This document shows positions 4,861 through 61,581 of a DNA stretch of 64,000 bases, piece by piece; positions within the stretch are counted from its first letter, which is position 1; every line of letters begins with the position of its first letter. The notes under the pieces were generated by a model. The model ran no database searches, was not told the DNA's origin, and saw nothing but the letters and a program-made list of their open reading frames with translations. The stretch is from an uncultured Acholeplasmataceae bacterium (GTDB lineage: Bacteria > Bacillota_I > Bacilli_A > Acholeplasmatales > UBA5453), in the NCBI GenBank assembly GCA_964552625.1, contig CAZKGV010000007.1:10264-74263 (forward strand). The letters run 5' to 3'. Both the position numbers and the translations under genes were made by a program.

Positions 4861-4957
4861 TATGATACTTAAAATTTTTGAAAAACCCTATAAATTTGTT
4901 GTAATAGTTAACCGGTTTTAGAGTTTTTAGGATTTTTGGTTTAGAAAAAAGGCAGTA

Positions 4958-5033: not shown

Positions 5034-5150
5034 TGGAAGGAACTTCATATATATAAGCCTTATTTTCCACTTTTCTTATTTTTGTGAATAAAGGGCATTT
5101 ATCCCTATTTTCGCTTTCCGAATTTTTAGTGAGTGAAGCGGATGTTTTCC

Positions 5151-6269: not shown

Positions 6270-6310
6270 TTTTCTTTCCTCCTTTTTGATAAAATGTTTT
6301 TCCTTTCATA

Positions 6311-16499: not shown

Positions 16500-16593
16500 C
16501 GCTATCTCCTTAACACTACATACAATAATAACAAACTTCTCTAATTTTTCCAATAAAAACTCATTTTTACCCGTAAAACCAAATTAAATCCTC

Positions 16594-16621
16594 TTTACAT
16601 AAACAAAAAATAATGTATAAT
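16594..16621 (+). promoter_or_regulatory. Promoter for the tRNA-His/tRNA-Gln pair
   Basis: TTTACA-16 nt-TGTATAAT (extended -10) ends 17 nt before the tRNA. Confidence 0.5.
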
Positions 16622-16637
16622 ATAGTTTGCGGGGTAT

Positions 16638-16714
16638 GGCGGCTATGGTGAAGCGGTTAACACACTGGATTGTGGCTCCAGCATTCGAGGGTTCAAGTCC
16701 CTTTAGCCGCCCCA
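16638..16714 (+). tRNA. tRNA-His (anticodon GUG) with G-1, CCA encoded
   Basis: The acceptor is G-GCGGCTA...TAGCCGC-C-CCA. The anticodon stem-loop is CTGGA-TTGTGGC-TCCAG. Confidence 0.9.
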
Positions 16715-16725
16715 AAATTAAATAT

Positions 16726-16797
16726 AGGCCCATAGCCAAGTGGTAAGGCAACGGACTTTGACTCCGTCACTCGTAGGTTCGAATCCTGCTGGGCCTG
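16726..16797 (+). tRNA. tRNA-Gln (anticodon UUG), CCA not encoded
   Basis: The acceptor is AGGCCCA/TGGGCCT. The anticodon stem-loop is ACGGA-CTTTGAC-TCCGT. The T-loop is GGTTCGAATCC. Confidence 0.85.
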
Positions 16798-16810
16798 TTT
16801 AAAACTATTA

Positions 16811-16833
16811 AAGCGATTATCATCGCTTTTTTT
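16811..16833 (+). terminator. Hairpin terminator, probably bidirectional (serving the tRNAs and the convergent amylase gene)
   Basis: The sequence reads AAGCGAT-TATC-ATCGCTT followed by T6. Confidence 0.65.
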
Positions 16834-16835
16834 GT

Positions 16836-18134
16836 TTAAATTTTGTTTTTCATAGAAAAAATAACAATTGGTTTTTCACTTAAAACAATTTGTTTGTTTT
16901 CTACTTTTACTTGATTTGGATATAAAATATTTTGATAAACCCCATTAGGAAGTAAAATATTTACGCCCCCCTTAATATTGCCAACATTAAATATTCCATA
17001 AGCAATCGAGGTTTCATTTTCATAACTAATTACCGCAACTTCTTGCGGTTGTATGTGAATATTAAAAATACCAGTTTGAAAAAGTGAATCTTTTTTCAGA
17101 TGACTCATCCGGTGAATTAAATTAGTAAGTTCAGATTCCTTTGGTGATAAATCTATTTTATCTATTTCAAACAAGTTTGGTCTTTTTTCTTGCCGATATT
17201 CTTGACCAGCATAAATCATTATTGTTCCTTTTAAAAAACATTGTAGCGCTGTTAAGTTAATAAGTCTTGTTTTATCTTCAACCAAGGCAGCAATTCTTTT
17301 GGTATCATGATTTTCTAAATATCTTAGTTTAATATAGTTTTGAGGAAAAATTGATTCTTGCCTAATTATACTTTTTAACCAATAACCTAAATCATCCTTA
17401 CCCATTATATAATCATTAAACTCGCTGTTAATATCGTAATCATAAAGAATATCAAAAGCTTCATAAAGTTCAGCATCACTTGCACAATAAAAACCACGGT
17501 CACGCAAGTTTTTAACCAAATCCAAATGAACAGACTCACCCAAAAATACTACATCAGGATTTAGTTTTTTAAGTTCTTTTCTCGCTTTTAACCAAAAATC
17601 AAGCGGAATAACTGATGCTACATCAAACCTAAAACCATCTACTTGTAAACTTAGCCAATACTTAAGAACATCAATCAAATAATCCCAAAGCTCTAATTTA
17701 GAAAAATCTAGATCTGTCACATCAGACCAATCTTCAACCTTCCGGAAAAGTTCTCCTTTTCTTTTAAGATACCACTCTGGATTTGTTTGTAGTAGGGTTG
17801 CATCAAAGCTTGTATGATTAAAAACTATATCAATAATTACTTTCATTCCCATTTGATGAGTTTTATTTATTAGTTTAATAAAATCTTCTTTTGAGCCGTA
17901 ATCACTATTAGTTAAAAAGTAATCTTTGACTGAATACGGTGAACCAATACTTCCCTTACGATTTATTTTGCCAATCGGATGAATTGGCAATAAATAAATA
18001 AAGTCCATCCCTAGCGATTTAATTCGTTCTAAATCTTCAATTAAACTTAAAAATGTCCCCGTTTTTGTATGCTGACGCAAAAAAACTTGATAAATATTTG
18101 CGCTTCTTAATTTTAATGGTGTATCTTTTGCCAT
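16836..18134 (-). CDS. GH13 alpha-amylase family glycosidase
   Basis: The conserved regions are DIVFNH, DGFRFDVA, FLGE and YLENHD. Confidence 0.85.
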   Translation of the reverse strand: MAKDTPLKLRSANIYQVFLRQHTKTGTFLSLIEDLERIKSLGMDFIYLLPIHPIGKINRKGSIGSPYSVKDYFLTNSDYGSKEDFIKLINKTHQMGMKVIIDIVFNHTSFDATLLQTNPEWYLKRKGELFRKVEDWSDVTDLDFSKLELWDYLIDVLKYWLSLQVDGFRFDVASVIPLDFWLKARKELKKLNPDVVFLGESVHLDLVKNLRDRGFYCASDAELYEAFDILYDYDINSEFNDYIMGKDDLGYWLKSIIRQESIFPQNYIKLRYLENHDTKRIAALVEDKTRLINLTALQCFLKGTIMIYAGQEYRQEKRPNLFEIDKIDLSPKESELTNLIHRMSHLKKDSLFQTGIFNIHIQPQEVAVISYENETSIAYGIFNVGNIKGGVNILLPNGVYQNILYPNQVKVENKQIVLSEKPIVIFSMKNKI

Positions 18135-18164
18135 AAATATTACTTCCTTTTAATTGATTTTTGG

Positions 18165-18893
18165 TTAAAATGAGATGTAATCTAGTTTTGAAAACACTAA
18201 ACCAATTGGTTTGTTAATAACTAAACTTGCCAACTCTTCTTTGCCTGTTAATGTTTTATTAATAATAACAAGCGGCCTATTCTTAGGATAATAATTTATT
18301 AAAAATGCTGCTGGATAAACAACTAACGAGGTTCCGCCAACAATTAACAAATCAGCATTTTTCATTGCTGTAATGCTTTTATCTAAATTTGTTTGCGATA
18401 AGGCTTCTTCGTAAAGAACTACAGCAGGTTTAATTAACCCCCCACAATCACACAGTGGAACTTCACTTTTTAATATTTTTTCAATACTATAAAACTTACC
18501 ACAATTCAAACAATAATTTTTATGAACTGAACCATGAAGTTCAATCACGTTAGAGCTTCCTGCCATCTGATGAAGACCATCAATGTTTTGGGTAATAATT
18601 GTAATCTGTTTTTGTCTGTCTTCAAGTTTTTTCAGGCCAATATGACATGAATTAGGCTTCGCGTTTAAATAAATCATTTTTTCTTTATAAAACTTGTAAA
18701 AAGCCTTGGGGTTGCTAAAGAAAAATGAACCAGAAATAATTTGTTCTGGTGAAAGTTCTAAGCTTTCATAAGATAAGCCCTTTTCACCACGAAAATCAGG
18801 AATACCAGATTCTGTTGATACTCCTGCTCCGCCAAAAAAGACAATATTATTCGCATTTTTAATTAACTCTTGTAGTATAGTAATTTTTTTCAT
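18165..18893 (-). CDS. cobB: NAD-dependent protein deacylase (Sir2/CobB family)
   Basis: It carries GAGVSTESGIPDFRG and QNIDGLH, with the Zn motif CLNCGK...CDCGG. Confidence 0.85.
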   Translation of the reverse strand: MKKITILQELIKNANNIVFFGGAGVSTESGIPDFRGEKGLSYESLELSPEQIISGSFFFSNPKAFYKFYKEKMIYLNAKPNSCHIGLKKLEDRQKQITIITQNIDGLHQMAGSSNVIELHGSVHKNYCLNCGKFYSIEKILKSEVPLCDCGGLIKPAVVLYEEALSQTNLDKSITAMKNADLLIVGGTSLVVYPAAFLINYYPKNRPLVIINKTLTGKEELASLVINKPIGLVFSKLDYISF

Positions 18894-30576: not shown

Positions 30577-31488
30577 TTAATCCCACGTTTCTAGATATTT
30601 TAAAATATTTTGAACAGCAATTACGCCATCATTTGCCGCTGTAAGAATTTGTCTGATTTCTTTATCTCTAACATCGCCAACCGCATATATTCCTTTTATG
30701 CTTGTTTCCATTTTTGGATTTGTTAAAACATAACCATACTCATTTAATATATTTAGGTTTTTAAATATTTTAGTTTCAGGCTTTAAGCCAATATATTCAA
30801 AAACACCATCAGTTTTAATAGTTAACTCACTTTTGTTTTGCCTATTTATTTTAACTCCTATAAGCTGGTTTTCATCATTTATGACAAACTCAGTAATCAA
30901 AGATTCATAATAAACATTAACATTTTCTTTACTTAAAAGAATATCAATAGCCTTTTTATCAGCAGTAAAGTTTTTCAAATTTTGAACAACTGTCACACTT
31001 TTTGCCAAACTAGCCAAATAACTAGCTTCTTCAACCGCGCTATTACCTCCGCCTACTACAACAACATCCTTGTTTTTGTAAATAGGTCCATCACAAATAG
31101 CACAAAAACTAATCCCTCTTGAGATTAAAGCATCTTCATTTTTTAATCCTAGTTTTCTTGGCGTTGCACCAGTTGCAATAATAATTGCTTTTGTTTCGTA
31201 AGTATTATTTGCAGTAACTACTTTATTTGCTTTCTGGCTAATAACTTCAATAACTTCATCAAATACGTATTCAACACCTAAAGCAAGCCCATGATTAAAC
31301 ATTTCAAGTGCCAAATCAGCGCCACCAATCTTATTAAATCCCGTATAGTTTTCAACTTCTAAAGTATTAATCATTTGCCCACCAGGAGCTCCTTTTTCAA
31401 TAACCATACATTTAAGGTTTGCTCTTTTTGCATATATGCCTGCAGTTATTCCTGCTGGACCTGCACCAATAATAATTAAATCATACAT
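30577..31488 (-). CDS. trxB: Thioredoxin-disulfide reductase
   Basis: It carries GAGPAG, the redox motif CAICDG and GGGNSAVEEA. Confidence 0.9.
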   Translation of the reverse strand: MYDLIIIGAGPAGITAGIYAKRANLKCMVIEKGAPGGQMINTLEVENYTGFNKIGGADLALEMFNHGLALGVEYVFDEVIEVISQKANKVVTANNTYETKAIIIATGATPRKLGLKNEDALISRGISFCAICDGPIYKNKDVVVVGGGNSAVEEASYLASLAKSVTVVQNLKNFTADKKAIDILLSKENVNVYYESLITEFVINDENQLIGVKINRQNKSELTIKTDGVFEYIGLKPETKIFKNLNILNEYGYVLTNPKMETSIKGIYAVGDVRDKEIRQILTAANDGVIAVQNILKYLETWD

Positions 31489-32516
31489 TACTTTTTATCC
31501 TTTTTTTTCATTTTTGAACGCTTAAAAATATTTATTTTAAAATATTCAAGCGCATCCTTTTTATTTTCATTAACAACATCGAGATAATAAGGAATATCTC
31601 TTTTGATGAAATTCTTTAAGATGATATATCCTACTCCACCAACCGCAAAAAGTGTTAAAGAAAACAATACATTCACTCTAATATTTCCAATCATCAATGG
31701 ATCTGTTCTAAATGGTTCAATTAAAAGTCCTCTACCAAGACCATACCAAACTAAATAAATCCCTATTAAATCACCTAATTTAAATAACTTTTTTCTTCTT
31801 ATAATTAAAATAAGGATTAAACCAAGCAAGTTCCATAAACTTTCATACAAAAATGTTGGATGATAATATGTACCGTTAATGTTCATATTTTCTAAAATAA
31901 ATCCCGGAATAATATATTTTAAAACATTATATGCATTCTCAGTCATTGCCCCGCCATGAGCTTCTTGATTAAAAAAGTTACCCCAACGACCTAAAATTTG
32001 CCCAATTAAAAACCCGGGAGCTAAAAGATCAATTACCGCAAAAAGATTCATTTTCCTTACTTTTGTATATATAACAGTAAACACCAACGCAGTTATAACA
32101 GCACCATGAATCGCAAGTCCGCCGCCGGCAATATTAAAAATTGCTCCAAAGCTATCAACCGGTTCAAAGATTACATAATAAAGTCTTGAACCAATTACCG
32201 CTAAAGGCACAGCAATTAAAATCCCATCCATTAAATGATCAGAATTAATATTTAAAAACCTAGCCTCACGAAAAGCTAGAATTGCTGCAAAAATGATGCC
32301 TGTTAAAATAAAAATAGCATACCAAGCAATACTTACATCACCAAAAGAAACTGCGATGTTACTATAGGGTGGGGTTTTCCCAGCCATCCCAATAATTAAC
32401 AACAAAATAAATACTCCTACAAAACTACTTCCCATAATTAGTGGTTGTTTGTAGTTAATTATTTTGTTAATAAATACATTTTCTTTTTTTATTTGGTTTT
32501 TTTCATTTTTTTTCAT
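31488..32516 (-). CDS. lgt: Prolipoprotein diacylglyceryl transferase
   Basis: It carries the GRWGNFFNQEAHG signature and is polytopic. Confidence 0.9.
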   Translation of the reverse strand: MKKNEKNQIKKENVFINKIINYKQPLIMGSSFVGVFILLLIIGMAGKTPPYSNIAVSFGDVSIAWYAIFILTGIIFAAILAFREARFLNINSDHLMDGILIAVPLAVIGSRLYYVIFEPVDSFGAIFNIAGGGLAIHGAVITALVFTVIYTKVRKMNLFAVIDLLAPGFLIGQILGRWGNFFNQEAHGGAMTENAYNVLKYIIPGFILENMNINGTYYHPTFLYESLWNLLGLILILIIRRKKLFKLGDLIGIYLVWYGLGRGLLIEPFRTDPLMIGNIRVNVLFSLTLFAVGGVGYIILKNFIKRDIPYYLDVVNENKKDALEYFKINIFKRSKMKKKDKK

Positions 32517-42450: not shown

Positions 42451-44067
42451 TTATCTAAATGAGCTTTTTAATTCCACTATTCTGTTTAAAACAACATCTT
42501 TTTCTTTACTATCTTGAATAAAATAACCGATTCTAAGTAACTGAAACTGACCCTTAATATCTAAAAACGCTTTTTCCACAAATCCTTCTTTTTTTTGCCA
42601 AGAATTAGGATTTATTCTCTCTAAAAACGATTCTTCTCCATCAAAAACTAAGGGACTAAAAAGATTAAAAGTAGCTTTAACTGCAGTTGTTTTTTCTACA
42701 AAACTAATAGTTCCATTTGGTTTTCTTGCACTAAAGCCTGAACCGCTTTTTGTTTTAGGATCATATGTTACTAATATTTCACTAACATTACCGTTTTGAT
42801 CATATTTAACATCATGACAATGAATAAAATAAGCATTATATAACCTTACTTCTAACCCCTTAGACAACCTTTTCCAACGTTTATTAGGCTTTGTTTCAAT
42901 AAAATCATCTTGATCAATATATAAATGTTTAGAAAAATATATTGTTTTTAGACCTTTAGACTCATCAAGTGGATCTAGTGGTACTTTTATTTGTTCAACT
43001 AAATCGTTTGGGTAATTTGTTATTGTTACCTTAAGAGGATTAATTACCCCCATTAATTTAGGAGTTTTTACTTGAAGATCTTCTCTTAAATATGCCTCAA
43101 GCATATCAATAGAAACTGTTGAGTTGTTTTTTGAAAGTCCAGTTGCTAAAATGAATTCTTTTATTGCTTCTTTGGTATATCCTCTTCTTCTTAAGCCTGA
43201 GAGAGTTGGCATTCTAGGATCATCCCAACCGGTTACTTTTTCCATTTCAACTAAGCTCTTTAAATATCTTTTACTCATAACCGTATTTTCAATATTAAGC
43301 CTCCCAAACTCGATTTGTCTTGGAACGCTTTCCATTAATGTTTCTTTTACTACCCAATTATAAAGCGGACGATGATCTTCAAACTCTAAACTACATAAAG
43401 AATGAGTAATACCTTCAATAGCGTCTTCAAGTGGATGCGCATAATCATACATTGGATAGATGCACCACGCTTTACCCGTTCGATAATGAGATTGAAAAGA
43501 AACCCGATAAATAACAGGATCGCGCATATTCATATTTGGGTGGCTCATATCAATTTTTGCTCTTAAAACTTTTTCACCTTCTTGATAAAGACCATTTTTC
43601 ATATTTTCAAAAAGCTCTAAATTTTCTTCAATGCTTCTGTTTCTATATCTAGAGTTTACTCCTGGCTCTGTAATTGAACCTCTTGTTTGCGATATTTCTT
43701 CAGCACTTTGATCATCAACATAAGCAAGGCTTCTTTTAATTAAAACAATCGCTCGCTCATACATTTCTTGAAAATAATCACTAGCAAAAAAGACTTTATG
43801 AGGCTTAAAACCCAACCATTTTATATCTTCTTTGATTGCGTTAACGTAATTAATATCTTCACCTTCTGGATTAGTATCATCAAACCTTAAATAAGTTTTG
43901 CCATCAAAAAGTTTTGCAAGCTCAAAATTAATCGTTAGTGCCCGCGCATGTCCAATATGTAAAAATCCATTTGGCTCTGGAGGAAATCTTGTGATAATAT
44001 GATTATGCTTTTTGCTTTCTAAGTCTTGAATCATTATCGTTTTAATAAAATTTGAATATCTTTTCAT
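42451..44067 (-). CDS. glnS: Glutamine--tRNA ligase
   Basis: TRFPPEPNGFLHIGHA (HIGH) and VMSKR (KMSKS) are present. A long collinear similarity to E. coli GlnRS was recognised by eye (LRFDDTNP, LRAKIDM, MRDPV.YR, WCIYPMYD, EGITHSLC.LEF). Confidence 0.85.
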   Translation of the reverse strand: MKRYSNFIKTIMIQDLESKKHNHIITRFPPEPNGFLHIGHARALTINFELAKLFDGKTYLRFDDTNPEGEDINYVNAIKEDIKWLGFKPHKVFFASDYFQEMYERAIVLIKRSLAYVDDQSAEEISQTRGSITEPGVNSRYRNRSIEENLELFENMKNGLYQEGEKVLRAKIDMSHPNMNMRDPVIYRVSFQSHYRTGKAWCIYPMYDYAHPLEDAIEGITHSLCSLEFEDHRPLYNWVVKETLMESVPRQIEFGRLNIENTVMSKRYLKSLVEMEKVTGWDDPRMPTLSGLRRRGYTKEAIKEFILATGLSKNNSTVSIDMLEAYLREDLQVKTPKLMGVINPLKVTITNYPNDLVEQIKVPLDPLDESKGLKTIYFSKHLYIDQDDFIETKPNKRWKRLSKGLEVRLYNAYFIHCHDVKYDQNGNVSEILVTYDPKTKSGSGFSARKPNGTISFVEKTTAVKATFNLFSPLVFDGEESFLERINPNSWQKKEGFVEKAFLDIKGQFQLLRIGYFIQDSKEKDVVLNRIVELKSSFR

Positions 44068-48536: not shown

Positions 48537-49202
48537 TTAAAATATTGCCGCTCTTGCTTGTTGCTTAACTTCTCTAGAAGTTGCAAAAGGAATTCTCGTT
48601 GAATATCCTGATCTTGCCGCAACAATTCTTTTAGTTGGCCATGTGAAAACGTCTGTGTTCCACTGTCTAACTGTGTCGTTATACACTTCTCTAGCTGCAG
48701 TAATTTCTCTTTGAAGATAGTTGTTTTGTTGCATCGCATCAGCAATAACTGCTTGGCTCTTTAAATCTGGATATGCTTCAAATGCCAAATTAATTCTTGA
48801 GTAAGTAGAATCTACTTGCTCAGCAACAACATTACGGTCTTCATCATTAGCAACACGTCCACCGCCTCTAAGCGCCGCAACTGCAGTCATAACTTCTTTA
48901 TCTAGTTTTGTTGACCTTTCAACTAAACCAACGACATTTTGAAGAATGACAACACGTTGCTCTAAATAGTTATCTATTTGAGAAGCGTTGTGTTGAATTC
49001 TTTGTTGAAGTTTCGCTAAATAATCTCTAGCCTTAATCTTCATAAATAAAAAGATTATACCTGGAATAATAAGTAGCCATAAAAGGATTTCAAATATTAA
49101 AGATCCTACACCCACTTCAACTTTAATCTGTTTGTGAATAACGTTTACATCCTGTCCTTCTTCTTTTACCGGACCTACTAATTCGTCAAGTTCGTTTGCC
49201 AT
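48537..49202 (-). CDS. lemA: LemA family membrane protein
   Basis: One TM segment is followed by a LemA-type helical domain (NYLEQRVVILQNV...AALRGG...FEAYPDLKS...LQREI...E..I..AR..YN..V..WN). Confidence 0.85.
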   Translation of the reverse strand: MANELDELVGPVKEEGQDVNVIHKQIKVEVGVGSLIFEILLWLLIIPGIIFLFMKIKARDYLAKLQQRIQHNASQIDNYLEQRVVILQNVVGLVERSTKLDKEVMTAVAALRGGGRVANDEDRNVVAEQVDSTYSRINLAFEAYPDLKSQAVIADAMQQNNYLQREITAAREVYNDTVRQWNTDVFTWPTKRIVAARSGYSTRIPFATSREVKQQARAAIF

Positions 49203-49205
49203 AAT

Positions 49206-51086
49206 TTACGCCTCCTTTTTCTTGTTTTTTTGATTGTACAGCAAAGTATCTAAATGATTTATATCTAATGGATTTAATTTTGTATCCGTCGTATATGCAA
49301 TAATATTTCTTCTAAATTCTAATTGATGATTCGCTAGTGCGTTTTTACTTAAAAATTGGGCCCAACCTTCTTTTGCCATGATTTCTTTAATATAAGTGTT
49401 TCTATTTAAATCATCAGCAGTCTTAACAATGACATTACTTTGTTTACTAACTGGCTCATATCGATACCAATAAACTGGAACATTATGAAAATAGCCATCA
49501 CCACCACGCATTCTTACATATTCTAACTCTTTAAATGCTTGAAATCCGTGAGCTGTTACTTCTAATTCATCCGCACCTTTAATCGATGAGACTAATCTTG
49601 TTTTTAAGATATTATAGGTATCTGAAGCTGGATGTTTAAACTCTGATGCTTTAAAATAATTAACGATTGCTTCATGTTCCCAACAAGACACATTTGACTC
49701 ATAAAAATCTTTGTAGATATATTCTTTGGCTTTATATTGTTGATAAAGCGGAATTGCTAAAAGCGGAGCAAATGAAAAATAAATGGATTTAAAATAAGAG
49801 TTATTATAATCATTAAAAAGCTTTTTTGTTTTAGCAAAATCATAAGTTATATATTTGTTAGGATTAGTATCAATATCAGCTTTTACTAAATGCGCTGGCG
49901 CGATTGTATTTAACATTCTATTTTTAATAAAACTAAAATCATCGCCAAACCCAACTTTATCATCTTTAATAATTTTAAGCATTTGCCTTTGAGCCAGCGG
50001 AGTGAAAAGCAGACGAAATTGAACTTCATGATTTCTATCTGTTGCGCCAAAAAGCACATCAAATTCTTCATCGGTCATTGCCGTAAAACCGCCACCTTTA
50101 GTGGTTGTTTTTCTAACTTTTTTCTGGATTTTTCTACTGCCTTTTTTAACCAGTTTCCCAACTTGTTTTTCCGAAAGTTTTTCTGCTTTTTTAGGCGTTC
50201 TACTAAAAGATAAATCAGGAGCAGCTTCATTACCATAGATTAAAAAACTATCAAAATAATATTCGGGATTTGGTTTTTTTAGTCTAGCAGTTAAAACTTG
50301 CGTTTTTCTTATACTAGTGTAACTGCCATCAGATTGTCTAACTCTCTGGGTCCAAGAAATAGTCAGTGTTCCAGTATATATTTTTGTTCCCATATAATGG
50401 TTTGCTTTTTTCCCGAAAACAAACGGATTACCTAATATTTCACCACTTTGAGAAAATAAAATAGAAACATCGGGATTAGAATTATCAGGTAGTTTATATT
50501 TGTTATGTAAAATATCATATCTTTTAGGGTCAAAATATTTATCCATTTTAATTAGTGGCATCGTTTTTTCAACTATTTCTGCTGGCATCCCCCAATCAAA
50601 CAAAGCATTTAAACTGCTCATTTGATCCCAGGCAATTTTTAGTTGTTCTTCATACTTTTTCTTTAACTCAACCAAGAAATCTTGCGTATTTTTAAGAATT
50701 ACATTTACCTTTTTTGATAAAAGAAAAATAAGTCCACCGCCAAGGAGAAGACTACCAAGCGTAATAGCGATATCAGCACCCTTATTTACCACTTCAACTC
50801 CTTTAATTAAAGCAAGAAAAAATAAAAAACCAACAATAAAAGATATTATTATAATGACAATTAAAAATGTTTTTAAGTTTTTAAACCTTTTTATCTTTTT
50901 ATCCGTAAATTTAATATCTTCTTCATGTTTTTTAACTTGTTTGACTGTTTTTTTATTTTCATCTTCATCAACTTGCGCTTTTTCCGCAAGTTTTTCAAAA
51001 TATTCGCTTACATTTTCTTTGTGTATATTGCGATATTTCGACTCATATTCACGAATTGGCTCATAAATATTGGTAGCTTCCATCAT
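49206..51086 (-). CDS. Two-TM membrane protein with a large uncharacterised C-terminal domain (626 aa)
   Basis: It has a coiled N-terminus, 2 TM segments (about aa 74-125) and a domain of about 500 aa with no recognised motif. Its stop lies 3 nt before the lemA start. Confidence 0.6.
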   Translation of the reverse strand: MMEATNIYEPIREYESKYRNIHKENVSEYFEKLAEKAQVDEDENKKTVKQVKKHEEDIKFTDKKIKRFKNLKTFLIVIIIISFIVGFLFFLALIKGVEVVNKGADIAITLGSLLLGGGLIFLLSKKVNVILKNTQDFLVELKKKYEEQLKIAWDQMSSLNALFDWGMPAEIVEKTMPLIKMDKYFDPKRYDILHNKYKLPDNSNPDVSILFSQSGEILGNPFVFGKKANHYMGTKIYTGTLTISWTQRVRQSDGSYTSIRKTQVLTARLKKPNPEYYFDSFLIYGNEAAPDLSFSRTPKKAEKLSEKQVGKLVKKGSRKIQKKVRKTTTKGGGFTAMTDEEFDVLFGATDRNHEVQFRLLFTPLAQRQMLKIIKDDKVGFGDDFSFIKNRMLNTIAPAHLVKADIDTNPNKYITYDFAKTKKLFNDYNNSYFKSIYFSFAPLLAIPLYQQYKAKEYIYKDFYESNVSCWEHEAIVNYFKASEFKHPASDTYNILKTRLVSSIKGADELEVTAHGFQAFKELEYVRMRGGDGYFHNVPVYWYRYEPVSKQSNVIVKTADDLNRNTYIKEIMAKEGWAQFLSKNALANHQLEFRRNIIAYTTDTKLNPLDINHLDTLLYNQKNKKKEA

Positions 51087-52879: not shown

Positions 52880-53392
52880 CTAAAGTATTTCATCCATCGC
52901 AATATCATGTACCTCTACATCGACATCTAAGTTTTTCATTGCTTGATGAACAATGCCAATTTTATAACCAAAATGATTTTTAAAATATCGGTCATAATAA
53001 CCCGCTCCATGACCAATTCGGTAATTTTTTGTTGTTGCAACGCAAGGAACTAAATAAAGGTCAATAAATTGTTCTTTTTTATGCAATAACGTCGGTTCTT
53101 TTAAACCAAACTTGCCTAACTGAAGTTCTTTTAAATCGTTAACTTCGCGAAAAGTTAAATCTTTGTTTTCTGTTTTAGGAAAATAAAACTGCTTTTCCGG
53201 ATATAAAACAAGCAAAGAAGTTAAATCGATTTCACCTATTAATGGATAATAAATTCCCACCTTTTTTGCAGTAATAAATTGTGGATTAATTTTAAGAAAC
53301 TTTATTATTTCTTGTTTTCTTTTAATTAAATCCTGTTCTTTTAAATTAGCAAAGAAATCTCGCGCTATTTTTCTTGCTTTGTTTTTATCCAT
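52880..53392 (-). CDS. 5-formyltetrahydrofolate cyclo-ligase
   Basis: It carries the GHGAGYYDRYF signature and is about 170 aa. Confidence 0.8.
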   Translation of the reverse strand: MDKNKARKIARDFFANLKEQDLIKRKQEIIKFLKINPQFITAKKVGIYYPLIGEIDLTSLLVLYPEKQFYFPKTENKDLTFREVNDLKELQLGKFGLKEPTLLHKKEQFIDLYLVPCVATTKNYRIGHGAGYYDRYFKNHFGYKIGIVHQAMKNLDVDVEVHDIAMDEIL

Positions 53393-54959
53393 TTAAATCA
53401 CTGTAATAACAAGCATTTAGTTTGAAATCTTTATGTCTTGCCATATTAAGTGCTTGTTCAGCGAAACTAATCAACTCGCTAGCATCTTTGCTGTCAGTAT
53501 AAGATGAACTAACACCTAGCAAAACTTCAATTTCAGCTGAGACTACCCCATACTTTAATGTTAAATTTAAAAACTCGTTGTTTCCCTTTAATCCTGTTCT
53601 TAAAAGTTCCATCTTTCTTGGATCAACAATAGAAACCGCAAAAACAATCCCAGAGATTCTAAATATTTCACTTGAATCACTCATAAAGCTTGTTTTTAAT
53701 TTCTTTATATACTCACTAATTAACATATTGCCAACTTCGCGTCCATACTTTTTATTTATCTCTGGTATATTTGATAAATCAAAAAGTGCTAATTGAAAAG
53801 TCTTTTTTTGATCAAGCAATGTCTTTAAATGAAAATTAAGCTCTTTTTCTGTTTTTAAATTATCGATAGTATCAATACCAACCTTAAAATAACCTTCTGC
53901 ATGTATTATATTAAATGCTCCTAAAATAATATTAGATGACTTGTCTTCAAAGATTCTTTTCCCTTTATCGCTTGCCCAAATATACTTACCATCTTTTAAA
54001 AATCGATATTTTGTTTTAAAGGATTCTTTTTTAGTTGTCAAACTAGATAGTGTGCCTAAATAACTATTTAGATCCTCAGGATAAATATATTTTTGAAAAT
54101 CTTCATACGCAATGCTGTGAGTTTTTAAACCTGTTTGCTTCAAAAAGTTTTCACTGCCCCAAAGATATTTTTCATCTAAGTCAATATAGTATAACGCTTC
54201 TTCTGTTAGTTCCATTGTTGTAATATATTTAATTCTTAATGATTCTAATTCGTTTTTTGTATTTACAAGCTCTTTTTCAATACCAACTAAATTGAAATCA
54301 CTTTGTTTTTCACCAATATTGATTCTTCCTTTATAAATACCCATAATAAATATTGGTTGTTCGACCATTGTAAACAAAACACTGTTACCTTTATAGTTTT
54401 GAAAAACCATAGTATGTAGGTCTAATTGATCTTTTTTAACTTCTTTTGGATAAGAATCATAATAAGTTTGCAAACTCCGGTTAGAAGTTTTAACATCATC
54501 AAAATTAGTAATTCTAATTGATTTATTAAAAACATCAAATAAGTTTTTCCCAATTACATCCTCTAATTTAAAACCAAGTTCTTCTAACACCCCTTCGCTC
54601 ATCTCTTTAATTTTTCCCTTTTGGTCAACAACATAATAAGCATTCCACTTAGTTGCCTTAATTGAATTTAAAAAACTTTTGTAATGTTTTTTAAAAAACG
54701 TTAATTTCATAATATAAATAAAACCAACCACCAATAATAAAACTCCTGTTAAAATACCCTGCCCCAAAAACAGATAAAAAAACCAGTTTTGTTTTTCAAA
54801 AGTTTTATAAAAAGGAATATAAACCAAAAAAACCACAGCATTAATAAGTGCTAAAATTAATGAAATGTGGTGGTGTTTGTCATCTATAAATTTAATTAAA
54901 TAGACAAACAAAAAAATTAACAACGCTAATAAAAAAGGCATTAACGGTATTAATGACAA
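53385..54959 (-). CDS. Membrane sensor with two PAS-like domains and a degenerate GGDEF domain
   Basis: It has 4 N-terminal TM segments and PAS-like segments (YYVVDQKGKIKEMSEG; YRFLKDGKYIWASDKG). The C-terminal GGDEF-like fold reads LALFDLSNIPEINKKYGREVGN...FRISGIVFAV, so the GGDEF position reads SGIVF. Confidence 0.65.
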   Translation of the reverse strand: MSLIPLMPFLLALLIFLFVYLIKFIDDKHHHISLILALINAVVFLVYIPFYKTFEKQNWFFYLFLGQGILTGVLLLVVGFIYIMKLTFFKKHYKSFLNSIKATKWNAYYVVDQKGKIKEMSEGVLEELGFKLEDVIGKNLFDVFNKSIRITNFDDVKTSNRSLQTYYDSYPKEVKKDQLDLHTMVFQNYKGNSVLFTMVEQPIFIMGIYKGRINIGEKQSDFNLVGIEKELVNTKNELESLRIKYITTMELTEEALYYIDLDEKYLWGSENFLKQTGLKTHSIAYEDFQKYIYPEDLNSYLGTLSSLTTKKESFKTKYRFLKDGKYIWASDKGKRIFEDKSSNIILGAFNIIHAEGYFKVGIDTIDNLKTEKELNFHLKTLLDQKKTFQLALFDLSNIPEINKKYGREVGNMLISEYIKKLKTSFMSDSSEIFRISGIVFAVSIVDPRKMELLRTGLKGNNEFLNLTLKYGVVSAEIEVLLGVSSSYTDSKDASELISFAEQALNMARHKDFKLNACYYSDLNG

Positions 54960-54971
54960 AATACCAACTCC

Positions 54972-55157
54972 TTATTTAATATAATAAACTAACGCAACAA
55001 TAACTGCCATCAATATAAAAGAAATTAATACTCTTAACCAAATGTGTTTATTCATAAATGAGATAAACTTCTCTGATATATTAATTGAGGCAATCACTTT
55101 AATGGGATTAAATAGTACTTGAATAAATATTTTGAAAAAGTTTTTTATTTTTCTCAT
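54972..55157 (-). CDS. Small membrane protein (61 aa)
   Basis: It has two hydrophobic segments and lies immediately downstream of cdaA. Confidence 0.4.
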   Translation of the reverse strand: MRKIKNFFKIFIQVLFNPIKVIASINISEKFISFMNKHIWLRVLISFILMAVIVALVYYIK

Positions 55158-55169
55158 GATTGTCCTCTC

Positions 55170-55901
55170 TTATTTTAAATACATGTTAATGTATTCATAC
55201 ATTTTTTCTTTATCATTTGCTCGAATCATAATTCCTTCAATAACAATCGATACATTTCCTGTTTCTTCAGAAACAACCAAAGTAAGCGCATCAGTTGATT
55301 CGCTAATACCCAGAGCTGCCCGGTGCCGGGATCCCATAGTTTTATCTTCTTTTTCCCGCTCACTTAAATCATAATAAGCACCTGCACACCGAATTAAATC
55401 CCCTTTTATAATCACAGCTCCATCATGCAAAGGAGTATTGGGGGTAAAAATATTAATTAATAATTCTTTACTAACAGCCGAGTTCATTATAATCGCTTTA
55501 TCAGCATAAACGTCAAGCGAATTATGCTTTTCAATTGTAATTAAAGCACCAATTTTTTGGCTTGCCAAATACATTACCGCCTCAACAATTTGGGTCTTTG
55601 TTTCTTGTGAGCCAATTGAAGCCACCTCTAATAAATCTTTCGACCACCCAACCTCAAAACCCTTTCTAATGTCTGGTGATTGAATTACAATCAAAAACAC
55701 CGGTGCCCAAAAACTAACTTCCTTTAAGACTCGGTAACTAATCATAAGCTCCAATTTCCAAGCTCCCCATGTGAGTAGATAAACAAAAGCGATAATTAAA
55801 AACAATTTTAAAACCTTTTTTGAACTCAAAAAGAAAGATAAGAAAAAATAAATAATTATCCATAAAACATAACTATCTAAAATAATTTTATAATCCGGCA
55901 T
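55170..55901 (-). CDS. cdaA: Diadenylate cyclase CdaA (DisA_N domain)
   Basis: It has N-terminal TM segments and the motifs GALITIE, PLHDGAVII, GSRHRAALG and VVSEETG. Confidence 0.9.
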   Translation of the reverse strand: MPDYKIILDSYVLWIIIYFFLSFFLSSKKVLKLFLIIAFVYLLTWGAWKLELMISYRVLKEVSFWAPVFLIVIQSPDIRKGFEVGWSKDLLEVASIGSQETKTQIVEAVMYLASQKIGALITIEKHNSLDVYADKAIIMNSAVSKELLINIFTPNTPLHDGAVIIKGDLIRCAGAYYDLSEREKEDKTMGSRHRAALGISESTDALTLVVSEETGNVSIVIEGIMIRANDKEKMYEYINMYLK

Positions 55902-56019: not shown

Positions 56020-56190
56020 CTTTTTATTCTCAAAAATAAATTCGGTTTTAGACATCCTATATTAGATTGTCTATTTAATGGCAAATGCTTAATTGTTTTT
56101 CTTTTGCTGATGATAAAATAATAGTGTATGATAAACTGGATTTGCTAACCACAAAATTAATGTAAATCTTGTTTTAGGGGGAATTTAACG

Positions 56191-58278
56191 ATGGAAAAAA
56201 ATCATCAATTATTTGATATTGGGATAATTGGCGCTGGTATTGGAGGTTTAACTGCGGCTCTTGAAGCTGGACAAAATGGTTTAAATGTAGTTTTATTCGA
56301 AAAAAGAAATCTTGGTGGAGTTGCATTTAATGGCGGAGATATACTATTAAGAAAGTTTTATAATTATCTTAATGATATTTCTTTGCTCCACTTAGATACT
56401 CACCAACAGCCTTTAAAATCACAATCAATAAAAGAATTATTGGCCTTATTTAAACATAACCAAAAACAGCACATTGCTGATTATATTGACTTGTTTGCTG
56501 GCTTAAAAAACATTAAAGTTGTTTACGATAAAGCTTCTTTAATTAATCAAAACACCATTAAAACAAGCAATAAGACTTATAAATTTAATTCTATTGTTTT
56601 AGCTTATGGGCAAACACCACGACTACCAAAAATAAAAGGGTTAGAGGAATCCTTAAAAAGTGGTTTTTTACGAAAAGCACACGAGCTTGTTGATGTAGAA
56701 AATGATTTTAACAAGGTTGCCATAATCGGCTCTGGGAGAATCGCTTTTTCACTCGCATCTTTTTTATCTAGTGTTGGTGTTGATGTTTATGTTTTAGCTA
56801 GAAACGGTTTTTTAAATCATTTAGATGATGATATTAAAAAAATTTATTTAAATTTAATTCAAAAAGATAATCTCTATTTAATAGATAATACTAGTCTTAC
56901 AGAAATTAAAAATCAAACAATATACTATCAAAAAGATAATAAAAAGGAAAAACTTGAAGTTGATGTTGCCCTTGTTGCGATGGGGTTTAAACCCAATAAT
57001 AACATTATAGAAAACCTAAACTTCGCTATTGATTCACAAGGTATAATCACGAATGATTTTTTACAAACCAACTACCCAAACATCTATGCGGTTGGTGATT
57101 GTAACAACAAAGACAAATTTAGCAGTTTAGCTATCGCAGAAGCTATTACGGCCATTAATCATATTTCAGGTCACAAAATACCGCTTGATTACAATAATTT
57201 TGTGAGAAACAATTTTCTTACTTACCAATATTCTAGCTATGGCAACACTGAAAAATATTTAATTAATCACAAAATTCCTTATTTTAAACTAGCTTTTTAT
57301 CCAGAAAAACAAGCCGATTTCAAGCAAAATGTTAAATATGTTAAAATATTAATCCATAAATACACTAGAGCTCTTTTGGGACTTTCTGCTGTTGGCTTAA
57401 AACTAGATAATGAAATTAACGCAATTATTAATGTAGTTAACAATCCCATTCACAAAACTTATGAAAATAGATACTCAATTTTCTCTAATGCTCATTATAT
57501 TGGCAAATTATTAATCAACATGTTAAGAAAACATGATGCTGGAATAATTAATGATAACTTAGTTAATGTCTATCAACCAAAATATGATACTCAAACTTTA
57601 AAAATTGTTGGCTGTGAAGTTTTATCGCGCTTTAATGTTGATGGAAAATATCATAATCCTATGCCTTTTATTGACGCCTTTGAGTCAAATGAAACAATTA
57701 TCAATCTTGATTTAAAAGTATTAGAAAATTCTTGTAAAGTCATTAATGAATTAGAATCATTAAATCTAATTGATGATGATTTTACTATATCTATTAACTT
57801 ATCTCCTTTAACACTTGATACTGTTACCATTGAAAAACTTAAAGAAATAGTCTTAGCTCATAATGTTAAAAACTCAAGAATAACATTTGAACTAACCGAA
57901 CGAGTTACAAAAGAAAAAATAGATTTATTTAAAGCAATCGAAAAGCTCAAGCAATGCAATGCAAGATTAAGCATGGATGATTTTTCTGTTGGTCATTCTT
58001 CTCTTGCCCTTTTAAAGTATTCTTTGCTAGATGAAGTTAAAATAGATATGAGTTTACTTCCCAAAGATCAAACCGATAAAGACGGAGAAATAATCTATCA
58101 AAAAATGGTTGCTATTTTAAAACAATTAAACGTGTCAATTGTTGCTGAAGGTGTAGAAACAAAATATCATTACAATTTAGTTAAAAAATTGAAGGTTGAT
58201 GAAGTGCAAGGGTATTATTTTTCCAAACCGCTTACCAAAGAAGAATTGTTTTCTAAGCTTAAAACCAAAAAGCAGTAA
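56191..58278 (+). CDS. Fusion protein with an N-terminal pyridine nucleotide-disulfide oxidoreductase-like flavoprotein module (no redox cysteines) and a C-terminal EAL domain
   Basis: The N-terminal module carries GAGIGG, a second Rossmann motif GSGRIAFS and YAVGDC. GGVAFNGGDILLRK replaces the canonical GGTCLNVGCIPSK. The C-terminal EAL hallmarks are YQPKY...GCEVLSRF, INLSP, FELTE, DDFSVGHSS, VKID, VAEGVET and VQGYYFSKP. Confidence 0.8.
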   Translation: MEKNHQLFDIGIIGAGIGGLTAALEAGQNGLNVVLFEKRNLGGVAFNGGDILLRKFYNYLNDISLLHLDTHQQPLKSQSIKELLALFKHNQKQHIADYIDLFAGLKNIKVVYDKASLINQNTIKTSNKTYKFNSIVLAYGQTPRLPKIKGLEESLKSGFLRKAHELVDVENDFNKVAIIGSGRIAFSLASFLSSVGVDVYVLARNGFLNHLDDDIKKIYLNLIQKDNLYLIDNTSLTEIKNQTIYYQKDNKKEKLEVDVALVAMGFKPNNNIIENLNFAIDSQGIITNDFLQTNYPNIYAVGDCNNKDKFSSLAIAEAITAINHISGHKIPLDYNNFVRNNFLTYQYSSYGNTEKYLINHKIPYFKLAFYPEKQADFKQNVKYVKILIHKYTRALLGLSAVGLKLDNEINAIINVVNNPIHKTYENRYSIFSNAHYIGKLLINMLRKHDAGIINDNLVNVYQPKYDTQTLKIVGCEVLSRFNVDGKYHNPMPFIDAFESNETIINLDLKVLENSCKVINELESLNLIDDDFTISINLSPLTLDTVTIEKLKEIVLAHNVKNSRITFELTERVTKEKIDLFKAIEKLKQCNARLSMDDFSVGHSSLALLKYSLLDEVKIDMSLLPKDQTDKDGEIIYQKMVAILKQLNVSIVAEGVETKYHYNLVKKLKVDEVQGYYFSKPLTKEELFSKLKTKKQ

Positions 58279-58328: not shown

Positions 58329-58352
58329 AGCAGCATTAAAACTGCTTTTTTG
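58329..58352 (+). terminator. Terminator after the EAL gene
   Basis: AGCAG-CATTAAAA-CTGCT is followed by T6. An extended -10 (TGTTATAAT, 58351-58359) for hflX comes next. Confidence 0.55.
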
Positions 58353-58410
58353 TTATAATGACTATGAAAGCCAAAATAGACTTTATTATTGAAAAAAAAT
58401 GAGGTAAGTT

Positions 58411-60696: not shown

Positions 60697-61581
60697 ATGA
60701 AAGATCATGTCTTAATTGCAACAGCATATAACAATGAAGCCCGAATCTATGCTTGTAGCACAAAACATTTAGTTGAAAAAGCGCGAATAACACATCAAAC
60801 ATGGCCCACATCTACTGCCGCTTTAGGTAGATTATTAACCGCTGCAGCAATGATGAGTTTTTTCAACAAAGATGACTCAACTTTAACTTTGCAAATTAAA
60901 AGCGATGGTTTAATTAAAACAATAACTGCCCAAGCAAATATCTTAGGTGAATTAAGAGGTCTAATTGATAATAAAGAAGTTTACCTTAAAGATGAAAAAA
61001 ACAATAAACTTGCTGTTGGAAAAGCAATTGGTCATGGTTTTTTAACTTTAGCAAGAAACCCTGGCCTAAAATCAAGTTTTACATCTTCTGTTAAACTAAT
61101 CTCAGGCGAAATAGCCGAGGATTTAACTTATTATTTTGCGGTTTCCGAACAAACTTTTTCAACTGTTGGTTTAGGAGTACTAATAAATACTGATAATAAA
61201 GTTAAGCAAGCTGGTGGTTTTATAGTTCAATTAATGCCTAATGCAACAGAAAAAACTATCTCAGCTCTAGAAAAAACAATAAAAACCATAAGTAGCGTTA
61301 CTGATTTGTATGATTCAGGCTTAAAAACAAATGACCTTATAACCCTTTTAGCTAACAATCAAGAAAAAATCCTTGATAAAAAGGATATTGTTTATCGCTG
61401 TGGTTGCAGTAAAAACTATTATTATAATTCTTTAAAAAAATTAGACCTTATCACTTTAAAGTCACTTATTCAGGATGATGAAAAAATTGAAGTTGTTTGT
61501 CATTATTGCAATGAAAAATATAATTATTCTAAAGATGAAATTAACAAGTTAATCCTCTTAAAACAAAAAGAACAGCGTTAA
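60697..61581 (+). CDS. hslO: Hsp33 family redox-regulated chaperone
   Basis: It carries the C-terminal zinc centre CGCS...CHYC. Confidence 0.9.
   Translation: MKDHVLIATAYNNEARIYACSTKHLVEKARITHQTWPTSTAALGRLLTAAAMMSFFNKDDSTLTLQIKSDGLIKTITAQANILGELRGLIDNKEVYLKDEKNNKLAVGKAIGHGFLTLARNPGLKSSFTSSVKLISGEIAEDLTYYFAVSEQTFSTVGLGVLINTDNKVKQAGGFIVQLMPNATEKTISALEKTIKTISSVTDLYDSGLKTNDLITLLANNQEKILDKKDIVYRCGCSKNYYYNSLKKLDLITLKSLIQDDEKIEVVCHYCNEKYNYSKDEINKLILLKQKEQR

Follow-up and report, generated by a model that had tools for sequence, protein, structure and literature searches.

An Lpd-like flavoprotein module that lacks the redox-active cysteines, joined to an EAL domain in a single protein

In the window (the whole stretch of 64,000 nucleotides that was analysed), which stems from an Acholeplasma-like bacterium, a gene on the plus strand joins a module that resembles pyridine nucleotide-disulfide oxidoreductases to an EAL domain. 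This raises the question of what a flavoprotein without its redox-active cysteines can contribute to an enzyme of cyclic dinucleotide turnover. An earlier note, made from the sequence alone, had suggested that a flavin- or NAD(H)-binding module was re-purposed as a redox or nucleotide sensor that controls the hydrolysis.

The fusion gene and its family

Both Pfam domains of the protein, Pyr_redox_2 and EAL, are encoded within a single reading frame (56191-58278, plus strand) that starts with ATG. The gene and its flanking signals are:

56191..58278, plus strand: whole gene for the 695-aa Lpd-like flavoprotein-EAL fusion (ORF list, Pfam, 13 full-length homologues alike in architecture)
56176..56182, plus strand: Shine-Dalgarno-like AGGGGGA, 8 nt 5′ of the ATG, seen in the sequence
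58329..58356, plus strand: terminator-like hairpin with T-run, 51 nt past the stop codon (consensus scan, a weak type of evidence)

The expected architecture was recovered by the profile search, with matches to Pyr_redox_2 (E 1.5e-48) and to EAL (E 2.9e-46). The N-terminal families were solely of the Pyr_redox/FAD Rossmann type; no PAS, BLUF or LOV domain was matched by Pfam in the 695-aa protein, nor a GGDEF domain between the N-terminal module and EAL.

HMMER was run exhaustively over 1.84 billion representative proteins and revealed about 11 full-length representatives of the fusion and 6 fragments that span the junction or lie close to it. All fusion members form one family, whose sources are Acholeplasmataceae, Erysipelothrix-like and Bacilli MAGs. 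The reading frame is continuous and the junction co-linear in 13 full-length sequences that were assembled independently and share 29-45% identity with the window protein. There was no independent Pyr_redox_2+EAL fusion among the best matches: the scores run from 438 to 266 bits and are then directly followed by single-domain proteins or junction fragments. A stand-alone cysteine-less Lpd-like relative was likewise absent from the best 150 of the 1.84 billion representatives, and each of the best single-domain matches inspected has a CxxxxC or an HPHPT motif. The module therefore appears to be restricted to EAL fusions.

Selection was assessed for two independent pairs of family members. The dN/dS ratio was 0.10 and 0.11 for the N-terminal module, and 0.14 and 0.06 for the EAL domain. 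Values of about 0.1 in both modules argue that the N-terminal part is not a decaying relic. Mean identity within the family amounts to 33% for the N-terminal module and 42% for EAL, the interface domain being the least conserved part with 28%.

The earlier note knew of no description of this domain combination, and our text searches of the literature found no paper on an Lpd-like/EAL architecture. The pairing of an Lpd-like flavoprotein with EAL is rare and undescribed, and belongs to the broader kind of sensor-EAL phosphodiesterases.

Cofactor sites and the former disulfide centre

The N-terminal module and the linker that follows it comprise these features:

56215..57129, plus strand: Pyr_redox_2 region, residues 9-313, FAD- and NAD(P)H-binding Rossmann domains (Pfam E 1.5e-48; Foldseek TM about 0.8 against GR and Lpd)
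56230..56247, plus strand: FAD dinucleotide-binding GxGxxG, here GAGIGG, residues 14-19; E37 closes beta-2
56314..56355, plus strand: former redox-disulfide segment, residues 42-55, GGVAFNGGDILLRK, canonical GGxCLNxGCIPxK (alignments to MerA, GR, Lpd and canonical Lpd-like proteins)
56728..56751, plus strand: NAD(P)H-binding GxGxxA, here GSGRIAFS, residues 180-187, followed by VLARN at 201-205, which resembles NADPH-type MerA
57085..57105, plus strand: GD motif of the FAD domain, YAVGDCN, residues 299-305; N305 is family-specific
57196..57444, plus strand: remnant of the interface (dimerisation) domain, residues about 336-418 (Pyr_redox_dim sub-threshold, E 8.8e-4)
57445..57558, plus strand: linker, residues 419-456, a low-confidence loop followed by a long helix, 433-456 (AF2 secondary structure and pLDDT)

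According to the AF2 model (pLDDT 90.2, pTM 0.85) and Foldseek, the N-terminal 440 residues adopt the complete fold of a class I flavoprotein disulfide reductase. GR, Lpd, MerA and STH were matched over the entire target length with TM about 0.8. The assignment of an FAD/NAD-binding fold to this region by the earlier note thus agrees with the profile search as well as with structure prediction and fold search. The motifs that it had read there are found at the same residues (GAGIGG at 14-19, the segment at 42-55, GSGRIAFS at 180-187 and YAVGDC at 299-304).

Conservation is most pronounced around the flavin. All 13 full-length family members keep G14, G16, G19 and E37, and the family shows no variation at the further FAD-motif positions G42, G43, N47, A138, G140, Y299, A300, G302 and A314. 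In the GD motif, position 303 is D or N, and only one of 16 sequences lacks N305. The family-specific conserved FNGG[D/E] and G[D/N]xN stretches flank the flavin site. The NAD(P)H motif (G180, A185, E187, D212, R204) is conserved for the most part: G180 is invariant, A185 is retained by all but one of 14 sequences and R204 by 10 of 15. Variants of this site (GGST, GSNF) exist in some members, the central Gly of the second Rossmann motif being S or N in three of them, and R204 is swapped in 5/15. S187 is unique to the window protein, the family having a conserved Glu at this position. In the pairwise structure-sequence alignment the VLARN of the window protein falls on the VLARN of MerA.

The Pfam score for Pyr_redox_dim was 19.9 bits versus a cut-off of 25.3, while the fold of the interface domain is present in the Foldseek comparison, in which about 455-470 columns were aligned with full-length GR and Lpd. 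The best NCBIfam equivalog (NF004945) reached 184.8 bits where its cut-off demands 494, and the models for MerA, GR and SthA also remained far under their cut-offs. On the basis of the motifs and the model, we infer that the N-terminal module binds FAD and NAD(P)H.

The situation is different for the disulfide centre. In pairwise alignments with MerA, GR and Lpd structures, A45 and D50 sit exactly at the positions of both redox cysteines, and the window segment reads GGVAFNGGD. Within the family, position 45 is A, S or T and position 50 is D, E, N, G or L; not a single member has CxxxxC. The C-terminal His-Glu dyad (HxHPT..E) is replaced by variable sequence across the family. As judged from its sequence, the module no longer has what the reduction of a disulfide substrate requires, since neither the redox cysteines nor the His-Glu acid-base pair is left. 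The term cysteine-less, used in the earlier note, is correct for the CxxxxC segment and does not extend to the whole protein, which has four cysteines (C304, C475, C515 and C589), none of them conserved. One family member is entirely devoid of cysteine, and no position of the family keeps one. Thiol-based sensing elsewhere in the protein was also considered and was rejected because the family has no conserved cysteine.

The EAL domain and its genomic surroundings

57544..58230, plus strand: EAL domain, residues 452-680 (Pfam E 2.9e-46; DosP EAL aligned end to end)

The EAL domain scored 158.2 bits with PF00563 (gathering score 31.3), the match running from position 8 to position 236 of the 236-position profile. 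The catalytic residues of EAL enzymes (ExL, R, N, ExxE, DD, KxD, EGxE, Q) are known from the biochemistry of RocR and TBD1265. This set is complete in the window protein (E476, L478, R480, N536, E567, E570, D596, D597, K617, D619, E653, E656, Q673) and invariant in 16 family sequences, with the sole exception of E570, which is K in fragment P0092. The hallmark residues listed in the earlier note are correctly aligned, within EVLSR (476-480), INLSP (534-538), ELTE (567-570), DDF (596-598), KID (617-619), EGVE (653-656) and QG (673-674). The top PDB match of the domain is DosP (E 4.5e-29), with the catalytic residues all aligned, and the c-di-GMP phosphodiesterases DosP, Lmo0131 and MucR align with it end to end. 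Loop 6 reads DFSVGHSS and matches the canonical DFG(T/A)GYSS in 5 of 8 positions. The family form is DDFS[V/I/A]G[H/N]SS versus canonical DDFG[T/A]GYSS, and the variant DDFSxG[H/N]SS is also present in ordinary GGDEF-EAL and SBP-EAL proteins. As far as its residues tell, the EAL domain is apparently an active c-di-GMP-degrading phosphodiesterase.

The only GGDEF domain in the window (53385-54959, minus strand) is degenerate, with RISGIVF in place of the motif, so that the claim of the earlier note that no intact GGDEF cyclase is present stands for the 64-kb window. Besides this domain, a search of the window for EAL, GGDEF and Lpd paralogues returned only a TrxB-like ORF (30580-31494). GGDEF and EAL genes are present in the genomes of relatives, and the GGDEF proteins encoded there have intact motifs. 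For Acholeplasma laidlawii, 14 GGDEF/EAL proteins were reported (PMC2408644).

The gene cdaA lies 290 bp upstream of the fusion gene on the opposite strand and is divergently transcribed. Neither cdaA nor the other genes of the window, the PAS-GGDEF* gene, hflX and dus, have counterparts near the fusion gene in nine related loci. The neighbours vary from locus to locus, and gene context therefore lends no support to a particular function. A link to c-di-AMP through the divergent cdaA can be dismissed as a family property, this adjacency being unique to the window among the loci compared. At gathering thresholds Rfam gave tRNAs only in the window, with no c-di-GMP riboswitch or other element near the gene. 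Genes for MsrA or MsrA-GAF recur near three loci, and NAD(P)-linked dehydrogenase genes adjoin the fusion gene in two (Aldedh in L051, AlaDH in L001); both observations are suggestive only.

Possible function and related systems

We consider it about an even chance (probability roughly 0.5) that the protein is a soluble (cytoplasmic), probably homodimeric c-di-GMP phosphodiesterase that senses flavin and NAD(P)H. Re-purposing of the N-terminal module, as put forward in the earlier note, is supported by the invariant FAD motif, by dN/dS of about 0.1, by the loss of the cysteines and of the His-Glu dyad, and by the extreme rarity of the combination. Its role in control is the part that we infer, namely the sensing of the redox or nucleotide state and its coupling to the phosphodiesterase, as well as dimerisation, signal path, direction of regulation and substrate.

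Such a protein could work as follows. The N-terminal 440 residues would derive from a dihydrolipoamide-dehydrogenase-type enzyme of Firmicutes that retained FAD binding and probably also NAD(P)H binding. The balance of NAD(P)H and NAD(P)+ against O2 or another oxidant would set the oxidation state of the flavin; alternatively, nucleotide occupancy itself may be the signal. Either of them would lead to a conformational change of the dimeric flavoprotein core. In canonical disulfide reductases the C-terminal active-site segment reaches the flavin of the partner subunit. In the AF2 model of the window protein, the low-confidence loop of the linker stands at the place of the ancestral His-Glu active-site segment, and helix 433-456 enters the first EAL strand. 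The former active-site segment would thus now lead into the linker helix, which may relay the conformational change to the EAL domains at the C-terminus, and the geometry of the EAL dimer would then determine how fast c-di-GMP is hydrolysed to pGpG.

Other readings of the same data have to be weighed. The two modules could be uncoupled, with the N-terminal part acting as a cysteine-independent flavoenzyme (NAD(P)H oxidase, diaphorase, quinone reductase or STH-like transhydrogenase) to which EAL is tethered for co-localisation or co-expression. The conserved FAD and NAD(P)H motifs and selection as strong as for a true enzyme are in agreement with this, as are STH among the structural matches (9n4y), SthA among the NCBIfam matches (E 8.7e-35), and the NAD(P)-linked dehydrogenase genes next to the gene in L051 (Aldedh) and L001 (AlaDH). 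Nevertheless we regard it as unlikely, considering that no stand-alone cysteine-less version of the module was seen among the 150 best-matching representatives, that variability at position 50 and in the former active-site loop suggests no defined site for a second substrate, and that EAL is nearly always the output of an N-terminal sensor module, as in the closest EAL relatives. Somewhat less probable still is a pseudoenzyme that binds no cofactor and merely serves as dimerisation scaffold for a constitutive or transcriptionally regulated EAL phosphodiesterase. In favour of a scaffold, none of the ancestral catalytic residues is left and conservation is lower in the N-terminal module than in EAL; in addition, a promoter region of its own and a terminator-like site make transcriptional control of the gene possible. 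However, the invariant residues are precisely those that bind FAD and not those of the weakly conserved interface, and the strength of purifying selection over 440 residues is hard to account for by dimerisation alone.

There is also a small chance that EAL does not hydrolyse c-di-GMP in vivo, and instead acts on another cyclic dinucleotide (c-di-AMP from CdaA, or cGAMP) or is a non-catalytic c-di-GMP receptor. The nearby cdaA, the absence of an intact GGDEF gene from the window and the departure of loop 6 from the canonical sequence fit with this view, and a Vibrio EAL structure deposited as 'cyclic di nucleotide phosphodiesterase' (6ifq) is among the PDB matches. Another substrate is at odds with the lack of cdaA adjacency in all nine related loci (0/9), and a pure receptor with the invariance of all metal-binding and catalytic residues. 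The end-to-end alignment with known c-di-GMP phosphodiesterases and the intact GGDEF proteins of relatives also speak against this reading. That adjacent genes were joined by sequencing error, in assembly or gene calling, is hardly credible: nothing was found in favour of such an artefact, and it is ruled out by the 13 co-linear full-length sequences together with several fragments that cross the junction.

Returning to the flavin- and NAD(P)H-sensing phosphodiesterase, a more far-reaching claim, which we make tentatively and with less confidence, is that it may represent the first case of a c-di-GMP enzyme that takes its input from an entire two-Rossmann flavoprotein of enzymatic origin, with NAD(P)H as the direct reductant. 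No intermediary would then stand between the pyridine-nucleotide redox charge of the cell and c-di-GMP turnover, and the active-site loop that once served the partner subunit would have been recruited as signalling linker. Acholeplasma-related bacteria have no cell wall, and their second-messenger signalling has been little studied; the family enlarges what little is known of c-di-GMP signalling in Acholeplasmatales and Erysipelotrichales. Redox input into c-di-GMP networks is known only via small PAS-flavin or heme domains and disulfide switches, which are coupled to NADH/NAD+ in an indirect manner, as in RmcA (PMC12540587, PMC8846402). If our reading holds true, the protein would provide a simple soluble two-module system for testing direct coupling of pyridine nucleotides to a second messenger, a clear case of a core metabolic enzyme (E3/Lpd) converted to a signalling domain, and a possible component of synthetic switches that respond to NAD(P)H.

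The protein has FAD, NAD(P)H and interface domains as well as GxGxxG, GxGxxA, ATG and GD motifs in common with class I pyridine nucleotide-disulfide oxidoreductases, the closest matches in sequence and structure being GR (6b4o), Lpd (6uzi and 1ebd) and MerA (4k7z). It differs from Lpd, GR and MerA by the replaced redox cysteines, the unconserved His-Glu dyad and the C-terminal extension by EAL. SthA/UdhA and AIF-type flavoproteins, which belong to the same flavoprotein superfamily (STH structural match 9n4y), operate without a redox-active disulfide, and AIF sets a precedent in that NADH induces a conformational change and dimerisation. Unlike the window protein, they have no fused nucleotide-signalling domain, and a score of 120 bits with the NCBIfam model for SthA (cut-off 465) places the window protein outside that family. 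DosP (PdeO) of E. coli, an O2-sensing EAL phosphodiesterase, is likewise a cytoplasmic phosphodiesterase with a gas or redox sensor; in DosP, however, the sensor is a heme-PAS domain, a degenerate GGDEF lies between sensor and EAL, and homology is limited to the EAL domain. Flavin-based redox control of c-di-GMP enzymes has precedents in RmcA, AxDGC2 and CdgF (PMC12540587, PMC8846402). RmcA (PAS-FAD, PDE), AxDGC2 (PAS-FAD, DGC), CdgF (PAS-flavin) and BlrP1 (BLUF-EAL) follow the logic that is proposed here, in which an N-terminal flavin module sets the C-terminal c-di-GMP enzyme via dimer geometry (PMC12540587, PMC8846402). Whereas their PAS or BLUF domains comprise roughly 100 residues, the flavin module of the window protein is a 440-residue two-Rossmann unit, and since this flavoenzyme fold has an NAD(P)H site of its own, direct reduction by NAD(P)H is possible.

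Architecture of the fusion protein

G+C content is about 29% over the whole window, and the standard bacterial code gives clean reading frames. AGGGGGA is located 8 nt before the start codon of the fusion gene, a 290-bp intergenic region lies upstream, and a terminator-like hairpin follows at the 3′ end. On account of these signals the gene looks monocistronic.

56191-58278, plus strand: fusion gene, 695 codons, ATG start
about 58329-58346, plus strand: terminator-like hairpin and T-run, 3′ of the fusion gene

The Pyr_redox_2 plus EAL architecture that an earlier note had read from the sequence was recovered with Pfam: both profiles match this one 695-codon ORF, Pyr_redox_2 at residues 9-313 (E 1.5e-48) and EAL at residues 452-680 (E 2.9e-46, profile positions 8-236 of 236). 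The model of the dimerisation domain stayed below threshold. The top NCBIfam models for the N-terminal part were dihydrolipoyl dehydrogenase, MerA, glutathione reductase and SthA, all with scores of at most one third of the equivalog cut-offs.

Aligned pairwise in HMMER with the structures of MerA, GR and Lpd, the fusion protein has A45 and D50 precisely at the positions of the two redox cysteines (GGVAFNGGD versus GGTCxNVGC in the canonical structures), in agreement with the cysteine-free redox segment noticed earlier. The best PDB sequence match to the module is the C136A/C141A mutant of MerA. When the fusion protein was aligned with canonical Lpd-like proteins in MAFFT, nothing in it corresponded to their C-terminal acid-base segment HxHPT..E. 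We built an AlphaFold2 model on 78 homologues (mean pLDDT 90.2, pTM 0.85). In Foldseek it matched GR, Lpd, MerA and soluble transhydrogenase over 450-470 columns with a target-normalised TM of about 0.8, which bears out the proposed FAD/NAD-binding fold at the N-terminus; this search found no solved structure with both modules. Model confidence is low at residues 422-426, the place of the old active-site loop, and a long helix (433-456) leads directly into the first EAL strand. The N-terminal module keeps the whole fold of a flavoprotein disulfide reductase and has lost the chemistry of the disulfide.

The EAL domain has E476, L478, R480, N536, E567, T569, E570, D596, D597, K617, D619, E653, E656, Q673 and G674, and all of these are invariant across the family, with the sole exception of E570, replaced by K in one fragment. 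It aligns end to end with the active phosphodiesterase DosP (E 4.5e-29), and likewise with Lmo0131, MucR, RocR and others. The single deviation is loop 6, which reads DDFSVGHSS in the fusion protein versus the canonical DDFG(T/A)GYSS. This variant is conserved in the family and shared with ordinary PilJ-GGDEF-EAL, GGDEF-EAL and SBP-EAL proteins, which are also the nearest relatives of the domain. Judged by its residues, the EAL domain looks catalytically competent.

Distribution and conservation of the family

When 5.8 billion proteins were searched through a word index, both domains occurred together in just five, the query among them. We built a profile from these five and ran it without prefilter over all 1.84 billion 50%-identity representatives, which yielded about 11 full-length representatives and 6 junction-spanning or junction-proximal fragments. 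Scores fell from 438 bits straight to about 266 bits or less, where fragments and single-domain proteins are found, and no independently arisen fusion of Pyr_redox_2 and EAL was visible among these representatives. The best single-domain matches inspected were ordinary Lpd-type proteins with CxxxxC or HPHPT motif, and therefore the cysteine-less module seems to exist only together with EAL. The MAGs bearing the family are labelled Bacilli, Acholeplasmataceae, Erysipelothrix sp. UBA3377 and Staphylococcaceae (the last on a short contig). LigA of the window has 58-60% identity to Acholeplasmataceae/Acholeplasma sp. proteins and at most 64% to anything else; the window belongs to an Acholeplasma-related lineage. 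The fusion proteins form a small family, being neither a one-off nor an artefact. Assembly artefact as the origin of the fusion is refuted.

Conservation was read from a 16-sequence family alignment with a per-position table. At the FAD site G14, G16, G19, E37, G42, G43, N47, A138, G140, Y299, A300, G302 and A314 are invariant, and position 303 is D or N. The NAD(P)H site is mostly retained (G180 and D212 invariant, A185 and E187 each in 13/14). The Glu of the GxGxxAxE motif, which in GR pairs with the active-site Lys, is replaced by Ser in the window protein alone (S187, window 56749-56751) and is present in the other 13 sequences covering the motif. An Arg after beta-2 of the NAD(P)H domain is found in 10/15 sequences; NADPH-dependent MerA has it too, and the VLARN stretches of MerA and the fusion protein align. 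The former cysteine positions hold A/S/T and D/E/N/G/L, the former His-Glu stretch is variable, and there is no conserved cysteine anywhere in the alignment, one member being cysteine-free. Next to the flavin site, on its flanks, are FNGG and G[D/N]xN, whose conservation is specific to the family.

In pairwise comparison, family members share on average 33% identity over the N-terminal module and 42% over EAL. For two independent close pairs, the Nei-Gojobori method gave dN/dS of 0.10 and 0.11 (N-terminal module) and of 0.14 and 0.06 (EAL), values that are approximate because dS is near 1. The N-terminal module is kept by selection, and it is the cofactor-binding residues that are selected.

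Gene neighbourhood and other genes of the window

Upstream of the fusion gene, and divergent from it, lies cdaA, followed by two ORFs in what is the usual place of cdaR in Firmicutes.

55170-55901, minus strand: cdaA, diadenylate cyclase (TIGR00159 at 185 bits)
54972-55157, minus strand: 61-aa membrane ORF, following cdaA in the same orientation
within 53385-55901, minus strand: 524-aa TM-PAS-PAS protein with degenerate GGDEF domain, following the 61-aa ORF
60697-61581: hsp33, 2.4 kb downstream of the fusion gene

The GGDEF domain has RISGIVF for RxGGDEF and GREVGN for GHxxGD, so that the earlier statement that the window holds no intact GGDEF cyclase stands. Close to cdaA, this possibly GGDEF-derived protein may regulate c-di-AMP synthesis or be a crosstalk point. 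Downstream of the fusion gene are hflX, dus (minus strand), hsp33, maf and tilS. In nine related loci the gene is accompanied by none of these window neighbours, and its surroundings change from one locus to the next; the fusion gene would therefore be a free-standing regulator. Neighbours in related loci (L-numbered contigs from MAGs) include:

Aldedh (the L051 gene listed below) and LplA
two-component system
GroEL with GGDEF and PAS-GGDEF-EAL genes
phosphate-type ABC transporter and YbeY
L001 8830-9798 and L050 369-1337, minus strand: MsrA-GAF (PMSR+GAF) fusion, divergent, immediately upstream
L048 4863-5360: MsrA (PMSR) gene, 2.6 kb upstream
L051 310-1671: aldehyde dehydrogenase, 69 bp upstream, same orientation
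L001 7733-8833: alanine dehydrogenase, two genes upstream

NAD(P)-linked dehydrogenases thus adjoin the fusion gene in two loci (L051, L001), and in L046 and L051 a gene for lipoate-protein ligase (LplA) follows downstream at a distance of about 2.5 kb. The recurring methionine sulfoxide reductases and NAD-linked dehydrogenases hint weakly at redox physiology. A link to oxidative stress is likewise hinted at weakly by the MsrA-GAF/PMSR neighbours and hsp33 of the window.

The genomes of relatives do carry c-di-GMP genes. L002, from an Acholeplasmataceae MAG with a family member, has a membrane-sensor GGDEF gene (4840-6308) with intact RYGGDEF and a frameshift near 5943, possibly an assembly error or a pseudogene, and a PAS-GGDEF(degenerate)-EAL gene (15862-18357) with canonical loop 6 (DDFGTGFSS). 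For Acholeplasma laidlawii 14 GGDEF/EAL proteins were reported (PMC2408644). The Rfam matches of the window that reached threshold were tRNAs only, with no riboswitch, and the 64 kb hold no canonical Lpd. Further ORFs are:

30580-31494, minus strand: 303 aa, sole other Pyr_redox-type ORF of the window, of thioredoxin-reductase size (phmmer E 1.4e-18 to the N-terminal module)
42451-44067, minus strand: class I aminoacyl-tRNA synthetase with tRNA-synt_1c_C and C2 anticodon-binding domains
48537-49202: LemA-family gene
49206-51086, minus strand: 626-aa ORF directly upstream of the LemA-family gene, no Pfam match at E ≤0.001

We take the anticodon-binding domains of the synthetase to be GlnRS-type, not bacterial GluRS-type; a true GlnRS would be unusual for a Bacillota/Mollicutes genome.

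Proposed working and comparison with known systems

The anatomy that the fusion protein has, and the selection pattern on it, are best read as those of a homodimeric flavin/NAD(P)H sensor controlling an EAL phosphodiesterase. Class I reductases are obligate dimers: one face of the flavin takes up NAD(P)H, and the opposite face is contacted by the C-terminal segment of the partner subunit. Stripped of its catalytic residues in the fusion protein, this segment may have been turned into a linker that leads to EAL. Regulation of EAL domains runs via dimer geometry, as for BlrP1 and RmcA (PMC8846402, PMC12540587), and a change in flavin oxidation state or nucleotide occupancy would therefore be well placed to be relayed to the EAL dimer. 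We infer this whole signal path, from flavin or nucleotide to EAL dimer; what the sequences show is the anatomy and the selection pattern.

Rival readings, besides the assembly artefact, are a cofactor-free scaffold for the N-terminal module, a different substrate or a receptor role for the EAL domain, and an uncoupled bifunctional enzyme for the protein as a whole. For the sensor reading, which the earlier note had put forward, the sequence gives partial support; the sequence-level predictions of that note, down to the position of each motif, all held.

The CxxxxC disulfide and the His-Glu dyad both define the Lpd/GR/MerA functional family and both are missing, so that the fusion protein is a homologue by fold and not a member. 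Variant loop 6 excepted, it has all sequence-defined features of active EAL phosphodiesterases, and we classify it as a sensor-EAL phosphodiesterase whose input module is novel and derived from an enzyme. No published description of this architecture was found in full text, where coverage of subscription journals is poor and an earlier mention is possible. The mechanisms given in two reviews of redox and flavin inputs to c-di-GMP signalling (PMC8846402, PMC12540587) are limited to PAS, BLUF, heme, hemerythrin and disulfide types. The architecture is rare and conserved under selection, and the proposed link between NAD(P)H/flavin redox state and c-di-GMP is directly testable. The proposed working is the same as for the flavin-regulated c-di-GMP enzymes RmcA, AxDGC2, CdgF and BlrP1, but unlike these the fusion protein is without PAS or BLUF domain, and its flavin module has its own predicted pyridine-nucleotide site. 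It would thus extend a familiar design principle and overturn none.
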